A stretch of 2,400 nucleotides of DNA from the NCBI RefSeq assembly GCF_003334255.1, contig NZ_QOWU01000135.1; one strand, written 5' to 3'. Source of the DNA: Escherichia coli (GTDB lineage Bacteria; Pseudomonadota; Gammaproteobacteria; Enterobacterales; Enterobacteriaceae). Numbering within the stretch: position 1 is the stretch's first letter; each line of letters opens with the position of its first letter. Below, piece after piece: positions 1 to 2,400 of the stretch. Position numbers and translations under genes: made by a program. Below the pieces are notes generated by a model, which was not told where the DNA came from, made no database searches, and worked only from the letters and a program-made list of their open reading frames with translations.

Positions 1-22
1 AAAAACGAGTATTTTTAGTCAT
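1..22 (-). CDS. IS3-family transposase OrfA, N-terminal 7 codons only (MTKNTRF...), 3' part outside window
   Basis: ATG at 22-20 on the minus strand, preceded by AGAGG (minus strand, positions 35-31) at suitable spacing. The translation MTKNTRF is the characteristic start of IS629/IS1203-type OrfA. Only 22 nt are in the window, so the call rests on context. Confidence 0.5.
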
Positions 23-35: not shown

Positions 36-101
36 TTCTCAGGGAGTTTAGTCTCCAGGATTTCCGGGGCGGTTCAATCTGATATAGACGGACATCTAAG
101 T

Positions 102-527
102 ATGGAATTACAGGACTGGCGAAAAGAACCTCGTAAAAACTATTCGAATGAATTCAAACTTCGTATGGTGGAACTGGCATCACAACCTGGAGCTTGTGTT
201 GCACAGATTGCACGTGAAAATGGCGTCAATGATAATGTTATTTTCAAATGGCTCAGGCTCTGGCAGAACGAAGGGCGTGTTTCGCGGCGTCTTCCGGTAA
301 CGACCTCTTCTGACACTGGCGTTGAATTATTACCTGTAGAAATAACGCCGGATGAGCAGAAAGAACCTGTGGCGGCCATTGCGCCGTCTTTATCCACTTC
401 CACTCAGACCAGAGTCAGTGCCAGTTCCTGCAAGGTGGAATTCCGTCACGGTAACATGACGCTGGAAAATCCATCGCCAGAGCTGCTCACGGTGTTGATC
501 CGTGAACTGACCGGGAGGGGGCGATGA
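102..527 (+). CDS. tnpA: IS66-family TnpA (Orf1), small helix-turn-helix DNA-binding protein, 141 aa
   Basis: ORF track 102..527. The N-terminal segment NYSNEFKLRMVELASQPGACVAQIARENGVNDNVIFKWLRLW has the transposase-type HTH signature. It sits immediately upstream of tnpB and overlaps it by ATGA. The start at 102 is the first in-frame ATG but has a weak RBS; the frame stays open upstream, so the true start is uncertain. Confidence 0.85.
   Translation: MELQDWRKEPRKNYSNEFKLRMVELASQPGACVAQIARENGVNDNVIFKWLRLWQNEGRVSRRLPVTTSSDTGVELLPVEITPDEQKEPVAAIAPSLSTSTQTRVSASSCKVEFRHGNMTLENPSPELLTVLIRELTGRGR
514..518 (+). promoter_or_regulatory. Shine-Dalgarno (GGAGG within GGGAGGGGG) for tnpB, embedded in the 3' end of tnpA
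   Basis: GGAGG at 514-518, 5 nt upstream of the tnpB ATG at 524. Confidence 0.55.
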
Positions 528-874
528 TCTCGCTCCCATCAGACACTCGAATCTGGCTGGTTGCCGGCGTTACTGATATGCGTAAATCCTTCAACGGTCT
601 GGGTGAACAGGTACAACATGTGCTGGATGAGACCCCCTTCTCCGGTCACCTGTTCATCTTCCGTGGCCGACGGAGTGACATGATTAAAATCCTCTGGGCT
701 GATGCTGATGGTCTGTGCCTGTTCACCAAACGCCTGGAGGAAGGCCAGTTTATCTGGCCTGCGGTGCGTGACGGTAAGGTATCCATTACCCGCTCGCAGC
801 TGGCAATGCTCCTCGATAAGCTGGACTGGCGTCAGCCAAAAACATCCCGTCTTAACGCACTGACAATGTTGTAA
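524..874 (+). CDS. tnpB: IS66-family Orf2 / TnpB accessory protein, 116 aa
   Basis: ORF track 524..874. The translation MISLPSDTRIWLVAGVTDMRKSFNGLGEQVQ...IFRGRRSDMIKILWADADGLCLFTKRLE is the highly conserved IS66 Orf2 sequence. The ATG at 524-526 overlaps the tnpA TGA at 525-527, and a strong SD lies upstream. Confidence 0.9.
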   Translation: MISLPSDTRIWLVAGVTDMRKSFNGLGEQVQHVLDETPFSGHLFIFRGRRSDMIKILWADADGLCLFTKRLEEGQFIWPAVRDGKVSITRSQLAMLLDKLDWRQPKTSRLNALTML

Positions 875-904
875 AAATGTCATGGCCGGATTATAAAAAC
901 GGTC

Positions 905-2400
905 ATGAGTCGGAAATACCTCATTCGTATCACTGAGCTGGAAAGGCTGCTCTCTGAGCAGGCTGAAGCCCTCCGTCAGAAAGACCAGCAACTGAGTCTG
1001 GTTGAAGAGACGGAAGCCTTCCTGCGCTCTGCACTGACACGTGCCGAAGAAAAGATCGAAGAAGATGAACGGGAAATAGAACATCTGCGGGCTCAGATAG
1101 AAAAACTGCGCCGGATGCTGTTCGGTACCCGTTCTGAAAAACTGCGTCGTGAAGTTGAACTGGCTGAGGCTCTGCTGAAACAACGTGAACAGGACAGCGA
1201 TCGTTACAGTGGGCGGGAAGACGATCCTCAGGTTCCCCGCCAGTTGCGACAGTCGCGCCATCGTCGTCCGTTACCGGCACACCTTCCCCGTGAAATACAC
1301 CGCCTGGAGCCAGAAGAAAGCTGTTGCCCGGAGTGTGGCGGTGAGCTGGATTATCTGGGGGAAGTCAGCGCTGAACAGCTGGAACTGGTGAGCAGTGCCC
1401 TGAAAGTGATCCGCACAGAACGGGTAAAAAAAGCCTGTACAAAATGTGACTGTATTGTTGAAGCACCGGCGCCGTCCCGCCCGATAGAGCGTGGTATCGC
1501 GGGCCCCGGATTACTTGCCCGCGTGTTAACGGGAAAATACAGCGAACATCTGCCACTGTATCGTCAGAGTGAAATCTTTGCCCGCCAGGGTGTCGAACTG
1601 AGCCGGGCCTTACTCTCCAACTGGGTTGACGCGTGCTGCCAGTTAATGACACCGGTGAATGATGCCCTGTACCGTTATGTAATGAACACCCGCAAGGTTC
1701 ACACTGATGACACACCGGTAAAGGTACTGGCACCGGGTCAGAAAAAGGCGAAAACAGGGCGTATCTGGACGTATGTCCGGGATGATCGCAATGTGGGTTC
1801 GTCATCTCCTCCAGCGGTCTGGTTCGCGTACTCGCCGAACCGGCAGGGGAAACACCCGGAGCAACACCTCCGCCCCTTCCGGGGTATCCTGCAGGCGGAT
1901 GCGTTCACAGGTTACGACAGGTTGTTCAGTGCAGAACGTGAAGGTGGTGCACTGACAGAAGTTGCGTGCTGGGCCCATGCCCGGCGAAAAATCCACGATG
2001 TATACATCAGCAGCAAAAGTGCGACGGCAGAAGAAGCCCTGAAGCGAATCAGTGAACTGTACGCCATCGAGGATGAAATACGGGGATTACCGGAGTCAGA
2101 GCGTCTTGCCGTCAGGCAGCAGCGAAGCAAAGTGTTACTGACGTCGCTGCATGAATGGATGGTGGAGAAGAATGGTACGCTGTCGAAAAAATCCAGACTG
2201 GGCGAAGCGTTCAGCTATGTACTGAATCAGTGGGATGCCCTCTGTTATTACAGTGATGACGGTCTGGCGGAGGCGGATAATAATGCTGCGGAAAGAGCGC
2301 TTCGTGCAGTCTGTCTCGGAAAGAAAAACTCTTATGACCTTTGTCAAATATTGAGCCCAAAAAGACCTTACGCAGCTCCGGGAGCTTCGTTATATCGCGG
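905..2400 (+). CDS. tnpC: IS66-family transposase TnpC (DDE transposase), 3'-incomplete in window; the last ~23 codons diverge from the conserved family sequence
   Basis: Frame 2 is open from the ATG at 905 to the window end, and my own translation confirms it. The N-terminal region is a charged coiled coil (ELERLLSEQAEALRQKDQQL...IEHLRAQIEKLRRMLFGTRSEKL) containing the IS66 FGxxSEK motif. Candidate catalytic residues are D at 1706-1711 (HTDDTPV), D at 1898-1900 (ILQADAFTGY) and E at 2291-2293 (NNAAERALR). The start has no obvious SD. Confidence 0.85.
   Translation, partial: MSRKYLIRITELERLLSEQAEALRQKDQQLSLVEETEAFLRSALTRAEEKIEEDEREIEHLRAQIEKLRRMLFGTRSEKLRREVELAEALLKQREQDSDRYSGREDDPQVPRQLRQSRHRRPLPAHLPREIHRLEPEESCCPECGGELDYLGEVSAEQLELVSSALKVIRTERVKKACTKCDCIVEAPAPSRPIERGIAGPGLLARVLTGKYSEHLPLYRQSEIFARQGVELSRALLSNWVDACCQLMTPVNDALYRYVMNTRKVHTDDTPVKVLAPGQKKAKTGRIWTYVRDDRNVGSSSPPAVWFAYSPNRQGKHPEQHLRPFRGILQADAFTGYDRLFSAEREGGALTEVACWAHARRKIHDVYISSKSATAEEALKRISELYAIEDEIRGLPESERLAVRQQRSKVLLTSLHEWMVEKNGTLSKKSRLGEAFSYVLNQWDALCYYSDDGLAEADNNAAERALRAVCLGKKNSYDLCQILSPKRPYAAPGASLYR
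1322..1453 (+). other. Cys-rich zinc-ribbon motif within TnpC (CCPECGG ... CTKCDC)
   Basis: Translated cysteines at codons starting 1322, 1325 and 1334 (SCCPECGG) and at 1436, 1445 and 1451 (CTKCDC), spaced as in the IS66 transposase zinc-finger domain. Confidence 0.6.

Follow-up and report, generated by a model that had tools for sequence, protein, structure and literature searches.

Does an insertion sequence whose transposase gene keeps its catalytic residues, with other mobile elements lodged on either side of it, still encode a working enzyme, and could such a copy move by itself or with help? This question is raised by the window, the 2,400-nucleotide stretch of Escherichia coli DNA that we analysed (contig NZ_QOWU01000135.1 of assembly GCF_003334255.1). 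The original prediction held that the catalytic core is intact up to the DDE glutamate and that any inactivation is recent or confined to the ends of the element and the C-terminal tail of the protein. Our analysis indicates that the window is very probably the middle of one ISEc23-type element of the IS66 family, broken by two other insertion sequences and left with a TnpC that is probably inactive. Such a disrupted ISEc23 copy is ordinary, already known and annotated.

Three elements meet in the window. Positions 1-76 are the terminal 76 bp of the left end of an IS1203/IS629-type element of the IS3 family, which lies on the minus strand, points leftwards and ends ...GGGGCGGTTCA at position 76. 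An internal segment of an ISEc23-type element follows on the plus strand (77-2329), equivalent to positions 61-2313 of the 2532-bp element, and positions 2331-2400, on the minus strand, are the end of the IS110-family element ISEc45 that lies downstream of its transposase gene; judging from the related copy L001, this gene lies beyond the window on the minus strand. The ISEc23-type segment carries, all on the plus strand, an intact open reading frame for the 141-aa accessory protein TnpA (102-527; 83 bits to NCBIfam IS66_ISRel24_TnpA, cutoff 74; WP_000422741.1 in L001), an intact gene for the 116-aa accessory protein TnpB (524-874; over the curated cutoff of NCBIfam IS66_TnpB, E = 3.4e-35; WP_000624652.1 in L001 and L008) and codons 1-475 of the 537 codons of tnpC (905-2329). 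The tnpB start overlaps the tnpA stop (ATGA), and the gene order tnpA-tnpB-tnpC is the IS66-family arrangement.

Megablast against complete E. coli genomes identified the element in the window as ISEc23, and window positions 77-2400 recur with 100% identity in the E. coli plasmids NZ_CP060062.1, NZ_CP060058.1 and NZ_CP116070.1 and in the PLSDB entry CP055726.1. RefSeq labels the identical tnpC 'IS66-like element ISEc23 family transposase; incomplete; missing C-terminus'. As the intact reference we used a 2532-bp ISEc23 copy on plasmid pTW10590_133 (L003:1802-4333), which has a target-site duplication on its flanks. Window positions 77-2329 are 97.9% identical to this reference at the nucleotide level, or 99.8% when the tnpB segment is excluded. 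Under the ISfinder isoform rule, elements bear the same name if their nucleotide identity exceeds 95% or their amino-acid identity exceeds 98%; at this nucleotide identity, and with 471 of 475 TnpC residues shared with the RefSeq-annotated ISEc23 taken as reference, the window copy is an isoform of ISEc23. It has the gene order of ISEc23 (for example, WP_000080193.1), from which its TnpC differs at 4 positions over residues 1-475; unlike ISEc23, it lacks within the window 60 bp at the start and 219 bp at the end of the element, owing to the nested IS1203 and ISEc45, and its tnpB segment comes from another IS66-family lineage.

An ungapped comparison of positions 77-2329 with the reference found 44 substitutions in 2253 bases and 0 indels. 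The substitutions are unevenly spread: 41 of the 44 fall within 491-947, a plus-strand segment comprising tnpB and the first tnpC codons, leaving 3 in the other 1796 bases. The segment has a 100% match in strain G1/2 (L008), in another IS66-family element whose overall identity is 93.6%, and it is 96.7% identical to IS682-type elements, against about 91.5% to typical ISEc23. Because the differences cluster in 491-947, where they match another IS66-family element, the window copy is, on its sequence, best described as a recombinant and not a decayed element. At the locus that L008 shares with the chromosome of E. coli Ec55 (L007:3926-6561), an IS66-family tnpC truncated at 1098 bp abuts a second, full-length tnpC, a nested or recombined IS66 arrangement.

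The interior of the window copy is otherwise nearly identical to intact copies and bears no secondary lesions. Between positions 1706 and 2293, the stretch that holds the proposed catalytic residues, there is one difference from intact ISEc23, a synonymous one at 2038. TnpC residues 1-475 differ from the intact protein at 4 positions (Q3R, A10T, C213S and I265V), all in variable columns of a family alignment, with residues that occur elsewhere in the IS66 family; in this alignment, 0 columns of at least 90% conservation are altered specifically in the window copy. The alignment comprises 112 diverse full-length IS66-family transposases, taken from a representative library with clustering at 50% identity. 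The expectation that damage would be confined to the ends was borne out, with the IS1203-type insertion at 76/77 and ISEc45 at 2329/2330.

We then asked what the surviving part of tnpC encodes. Translation of 905-2400 gave a frame that runs from the ATG at 905 to the end of the window without a stop, and the ungapped alignment with intact ISEc23 showed substitutions only and no indel, in agreement with the claim that 905-2330 is free of stops and frameshifts. Homology to tnpC ends at 2329/2330, and the frame continues open inside the inserted ISEc45; in the 100%-identical copies a stop lies 47 codons past the junction, yielding a 522-aa chimera. Pfam matched LZ_Tnp_IS66 at TnpC residues 60-130, zf-IS66 at residues 138-182 over the full model (1-46/46) and DDE_Tnp_IS66 (PF03050) at residues 196-477 (E = 9.8e-94, model positions 1-274 of 284), and NCBIfam transpos_IS66 matched tnpC over profile positions 4-346 of 387 (E = 5e-119, 397.8 bits, cutoff 180). 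The zinc-ribbon cysteines proposed from the sequence are present within 1325-1447 on the plus strand (CPEC...CTKC) as C141 (1325-1327), C144 (1334-1336), C178 (1436-1438) and C181 (1445-1447), conserved among the 112 homologues in 99%, 98%, 98% and 91%, respectively.

The catalytic residues had been placed at a D/D pair (1706-1711), a further D (1898-1900) and an E (2291-2293), and in the frame of the ATG at 905, on the plus strand, these codons read GATGAC (D268-D269), GAT (D332) and GAA (E463). Profile and family alignments put the catalytic residues at exactly these positions with none substituted. Across the 112 homologues, D268 (1706-1708) is conserved in 100% (112/112), D332 (1898-1900) in 99.1% and E463 (2291-2293), within the motif DNNAAERALR, in 98.2%. 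The motif C355-W-A-H358 (1967-1978, plus strand), which starts the helical insertion domain, is equally firm, C355 and H358 being 100% conserved. The column of D269 (1709-1711) holds D in 83%, E in 16% (18 homologues) and A in one. On conservation, the ambiguity within the D/D pair is settled for D268 as the putative first catalytic aspartate, with D269 as a neighbouring acidic residue, D or E. That D269 instead binds the metal at the first catalytic position is unlikely: it adjoins D268, both are acidic, and 111 of 112 homologues (99%) have D or E in its column, but D268 is strictly invariant while D269 gives way to A in one homologue and to E in 18. Whichever of the two binds metal, the residue is intact in the window copy and the conclusion is unchanged.

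Assignment of D268 as the first catalytic aspartate is consistent with the predicted fold. An AlphaFold2 model of intact TnpC, built on the family alignment (pLDDT 92.4, pTM 0.79), places D268 in a predicted strand (264-276), D332 two residues past another (328-330) and E463 near the start of a predicted helix (460-476), with a run of helices (356-450) between the second aspartate and the glutamate. In the model, the residues thus occupy the placement of an RNase H fold, D on beta-1, D just after beta-4 and E on the following helix, and the predicted TnpC fold is structurally similar to solved DDE transposases and integrases. The predicted topology is that of an RNase H-fold DDE enzyme with a helical insertion domain, and we assign catalytic roles to D268, D332 and E463 from conservation together with this predicted fold. 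A sequence search of PDB entries matched no solved IS66-family structure. The transposase of ISCth4 (PDB 6xg8), which belongs to a different family, IS256/Mutator, is 15% identical in sequence to TnpC; ISCth4 is without TnpA and TnpB accessory proteins, without the IS66 zinc ribbon and without a C-terminal PF13817. Literature searches found no published residue numbers for the IS66 DDE triad, and nothing mechanistic on CwAH, ISEc45 or ISEc23.

With the catalytic residues accounted for, the state of the enzyme turns on what ISEc45 takes away. In an identical plasmid copy, ISEc45 adds 1446 bp between the tnpC halves, with its transposase on the minus strand, and beyond it the last 62 tnpC codons and the right inverted repeat resume; the last 219 bp of ISEc23 on the right-hand side, including this inverted repeat, lie outside the window. 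The uninterrupted site reads GGAAAGAAAAACTTTATGTTC; at the left junction ...AAAAACT is followed by CTTATGACC, and at the right junction ...CCAT is followed by CTTTATGTTC, with a CT dinucleotide on both sides of ISEc45. The breakpoint in the window (2318-2331, plus strand) consists of the half-motif G472-K-K-N475, the CT core (2329-2330) and the ISEc45 junction. The cut after N475 lies 12 residues past E463, at the end of the helix that bears the glutamate (460-476), and splits the most conserved stretch after the glutamate, leaving G472-(R/K)473-K474-N475 on one side and W/Y476-L477-F478-x-G480-S481 on the other (N475 98%, F478 95% and G480 95% conserved among the 112 homologues). The DDE_Tnp_IS66 domain itself is cut at model position 274 of 284. 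Lost with the remaining 62 residues are Pfam PF13817 (494-530 of the intact protein), the helices predicted by the AlphaFold2 model at 482-500, 505-518 and 521-527, and the residues F478, G480, A489, L527 (93%) and P529 (97%), each at least 93% conserved. The claim of an intact catalytic core is supported within limits: it is right up to E463 and the 12 residues that follow, but the DDE domain is cut, GRKNWLF.GS is split and PF13817 is lost. With no full-length, PF13817-containing TnpC, the window represents a disrupted member of the IS66 family and not an intact one.

These observations suggest the following account of the copy. ISEc45, a site-specific element of the IS110 family, sits in tnpC after codon 475, and the IS1203/IS629-type element 25 bp upstream of tnpA parts the left inverted repeat from the genes. 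The 475-codon stretch is colinear with an intact 537-aa TnpC and keeps the zinc ribbon and the leucine-zipper region as well as D268, D332, E463 and the CwAH motif, with the kept residues at positions expected for an RNase H-fold DDE transposase. The split in the post-glutamate motif and the loss of the three C-terminal helices (PF13817) would nevertheless most likely inactivate the 522-aa chimera, and movement would occur only if an intact ISEc23 transposase acted on the inverted repeats lying outside the window. Judged from conservation alone, the chimeric TnpC is probably inactive, because the break splits the post-glutamate motif and removes the PF13817 helices. The last 62 tnpC codons being lost to ISEc45, the window copy is probably non-autonomous, unable to move on its own. 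Han et al. are said to have reported in 2001 that IS679 needs all three of its genes.

We also weighed whether the truncated TnpC, residues 1-475 with a 47-residue foreign tail, might still be active, in which case the copy would be autonomous apart from its displaced ends. Neither the three catalytic residues nor the zinc ribbon nor the N-terminal coiled-coil region has been lost, the frame is open, and the break comes at the end of the helix 460-476 and not inside it. This reading is nonetheless highly improbable: the break divides G(R/K)KN-WLF.GS at its conserved residues, the domain removed is conserved throughout the family, and the IS1203 element lies between the genes and the first 60 bp of ISEc23. 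A further point against it came from the complete E. coli genomes, which we searched with an uninterrupted element rebuilt by joining the two halves of tnpC. The best single-piece matches had 98.0-98.1% identity, and at least 99% was reached only in ISEc45-interrupted copies, so among these genomes the mosaic variant is seen only in the interrupted state, with no uninterrupted version at that identity. We continue with the preferred reading, a probably inactive chimera in a copy that probably cannot move on its own. The result is of low importance; pipelines are right to call such a tnpC an incomplete pseudogene despite its untouched catalytic residues, and insertion sequence copies that look clean can be disabled by nested insertions alone, a point of use when counting potentially active copies in E. 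coli genomes and plasmids.

The disruption on the left side is likewise a nested insertion sequence. Over bases 1-76 the window matches, at 100% identity, the end of an O157:H7 element (L004:4001-4076) annotated 'IS3-like element IS1203 family transposase', and the ATG of the IS1203-type transposase is the reverse complement of window positions 20-22. Homology to ISEc23 begins exactly at 77, where the IS1203-type end abuts ISEc23 position 61, placing the insertion at ISEc23 position 60/61, with the tnpA ATG 25 bp downstream. This displaces the first 60 bp of the element, with the left inverted repeat GTAAGCGTAAACTGACC..., to a place outside the window. In searches of 5,426 complete E. coli genomes and of PLSDB, the exact IS1203/ISEc23 junction did not turn up as one contiguous sequence, and a 40-base exact scan of GTDB representative genomes returned 0 matches to it. 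In strain MB19, a similar IS3 element lies at a different ISEc23 position (172-176). Expression of the genes may be impaired too, given that IS1203 parts them from the first 60 bp: the tnpABC operon may have lost any promoter in the displaced stretch, where we assume one to lie. A promoter and terminator scan upstream of tnpA found no sigma-70-like site and performed no better than on shuffled sequence.

Whether the copy could be moved by others depends on its inverted repeats, both of which lie outside the window, and we turned to sibling copies. An ISEc23 isoform is expected to have terminal inverted repeats that begin GTAAGCG and an 8-bp target-site duplication; the siblings in L001, L002 and L003 have the ends GTAAGCGTAAAC.../...GACGCTTAC and are flanked by 8-bp duplications. 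The two ISEc45-interrupted siblings lie at different sites, each with its own 8-bp target duplication (GTAGTTTT in L001 and GAATTACC in L002). The plasmid ISEc23::ISEc45 composites that are identical to window positions 77-2400 are like the window copy in sharing the ISEc45 junction and in having an incomplete tnpC, and unlike it in that their left end and inverted repeat are intact, with no IS1203 at position 60/61.

Possession of both inverted repeats and distinct duplications by the interrupted copies in L001 and L002 would be expected if an intact ISEc23 moved the interrupted element in trans; the window copy, non-autonomous, would then travel as a composite of about 5.3 kb with IS1203 and ISEc45 as passengers. 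Intact ISEc23 is common: 2422 genomes have places that cover 80% or more of the query. We consider such mobilisation possible but doubtful. Between the two composites that we compared, the ISEc23 parts differ and so do the ISEc45 parts, the latter being 97.4% identical to each other. ISEc45, moreover, is a site-specific element that enters a similar site in an unrelated gene as well. The data are explained equally well if ISEc45 inserted independently into copies after these had transposed. The duplications in L001 and L002 fit either history, independent insertion or mobilisation in trans.

The site specificity of ISEc45 was apparent from four junction settings, from which a target of approximately AAARAACT^WTATGTT, with CT on either side, can be derived. 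ISEc45 lies in the tnpC of ISEc23 in L001 (6254-7702) and L002 (7547-8996) and in an IS66 remnant of UTI89 (L005:2999-4448), with the same junction in each, and in strain HSP425 (L006:2999-4446) it lies at a look-alike site within an O-antigen glycosyltransferase gene, where the flanks are TATAAAAGAACT and CTATATGTTG. In tnpC, the target coincides with the codons for the conserved GKKN-FMF motif just past the catalytic glutamate, and it is of mild interest that the ISEc23 tnpC is always cut by ISEc45 at the same codon. One reading of this recurrence is that ISEc45 is a dedicated parasite of ISEc23-type elements and that TnpC(1-475) could be a trans-dominant inhibitor instead of simple debris. 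If so, each ISEc45 hit would produce the same TnpC(1-475), keeping the DNA-binding regions and the catalytic triad. We regard this proposal as very unlikely.

The ends of ISEc45 differ in length outside its transposase gene: upstream of the gene there are only 63 bp, and the non-coding sequence downstream measures about 250 bp. In L001 the ends of the element occupy 6254-6505 and 7640-7702, and window positions 2331-2400 belong to the first. A 10-bp subterminal inverted repeat (TATGACCTTT/AAAGGTCATA) is present, and the layout of the ends presumably resembles that of the IS1111 subgroup. In the IS1111 subgroup, the guide RNA is encoded 3' of the gene. An Rfam search of the window and L001 found no family for the ISEc45 end, its only match being the ALIL pseudoknot of an IS3 element. 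A k-mer search for a guide-like match between the 3' non-coding end of ISEc45 and its target returned one 7-mer, where by our own estimate about one would be expected by chance, and this candidate was dropped.

Among complete E. coli genomes, 632 contain the ISEc45 end and 529 the ISEc23::ISEc45 junction. We rejected the view that these 529 genomes show the full composite to be widespread: each of the three chromosomal hits that we inspected (3/3) is a short remnant, and all lie at one conserved locus, so the count of 529 overstates how far the full composite has spread. In L009, L010 and L011 (about 4326-4700), the remnant consists of 255 bp of IS66 tnpC and a piece of ISEc45, beside PTS ascorbate transporter genes. 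Its junction is 100% identical to window positions 2250-2400, and the locus is the same in the three unrelated strains; the ISEc23::ISEc45 junction sequence thus exists also as decayed debris.
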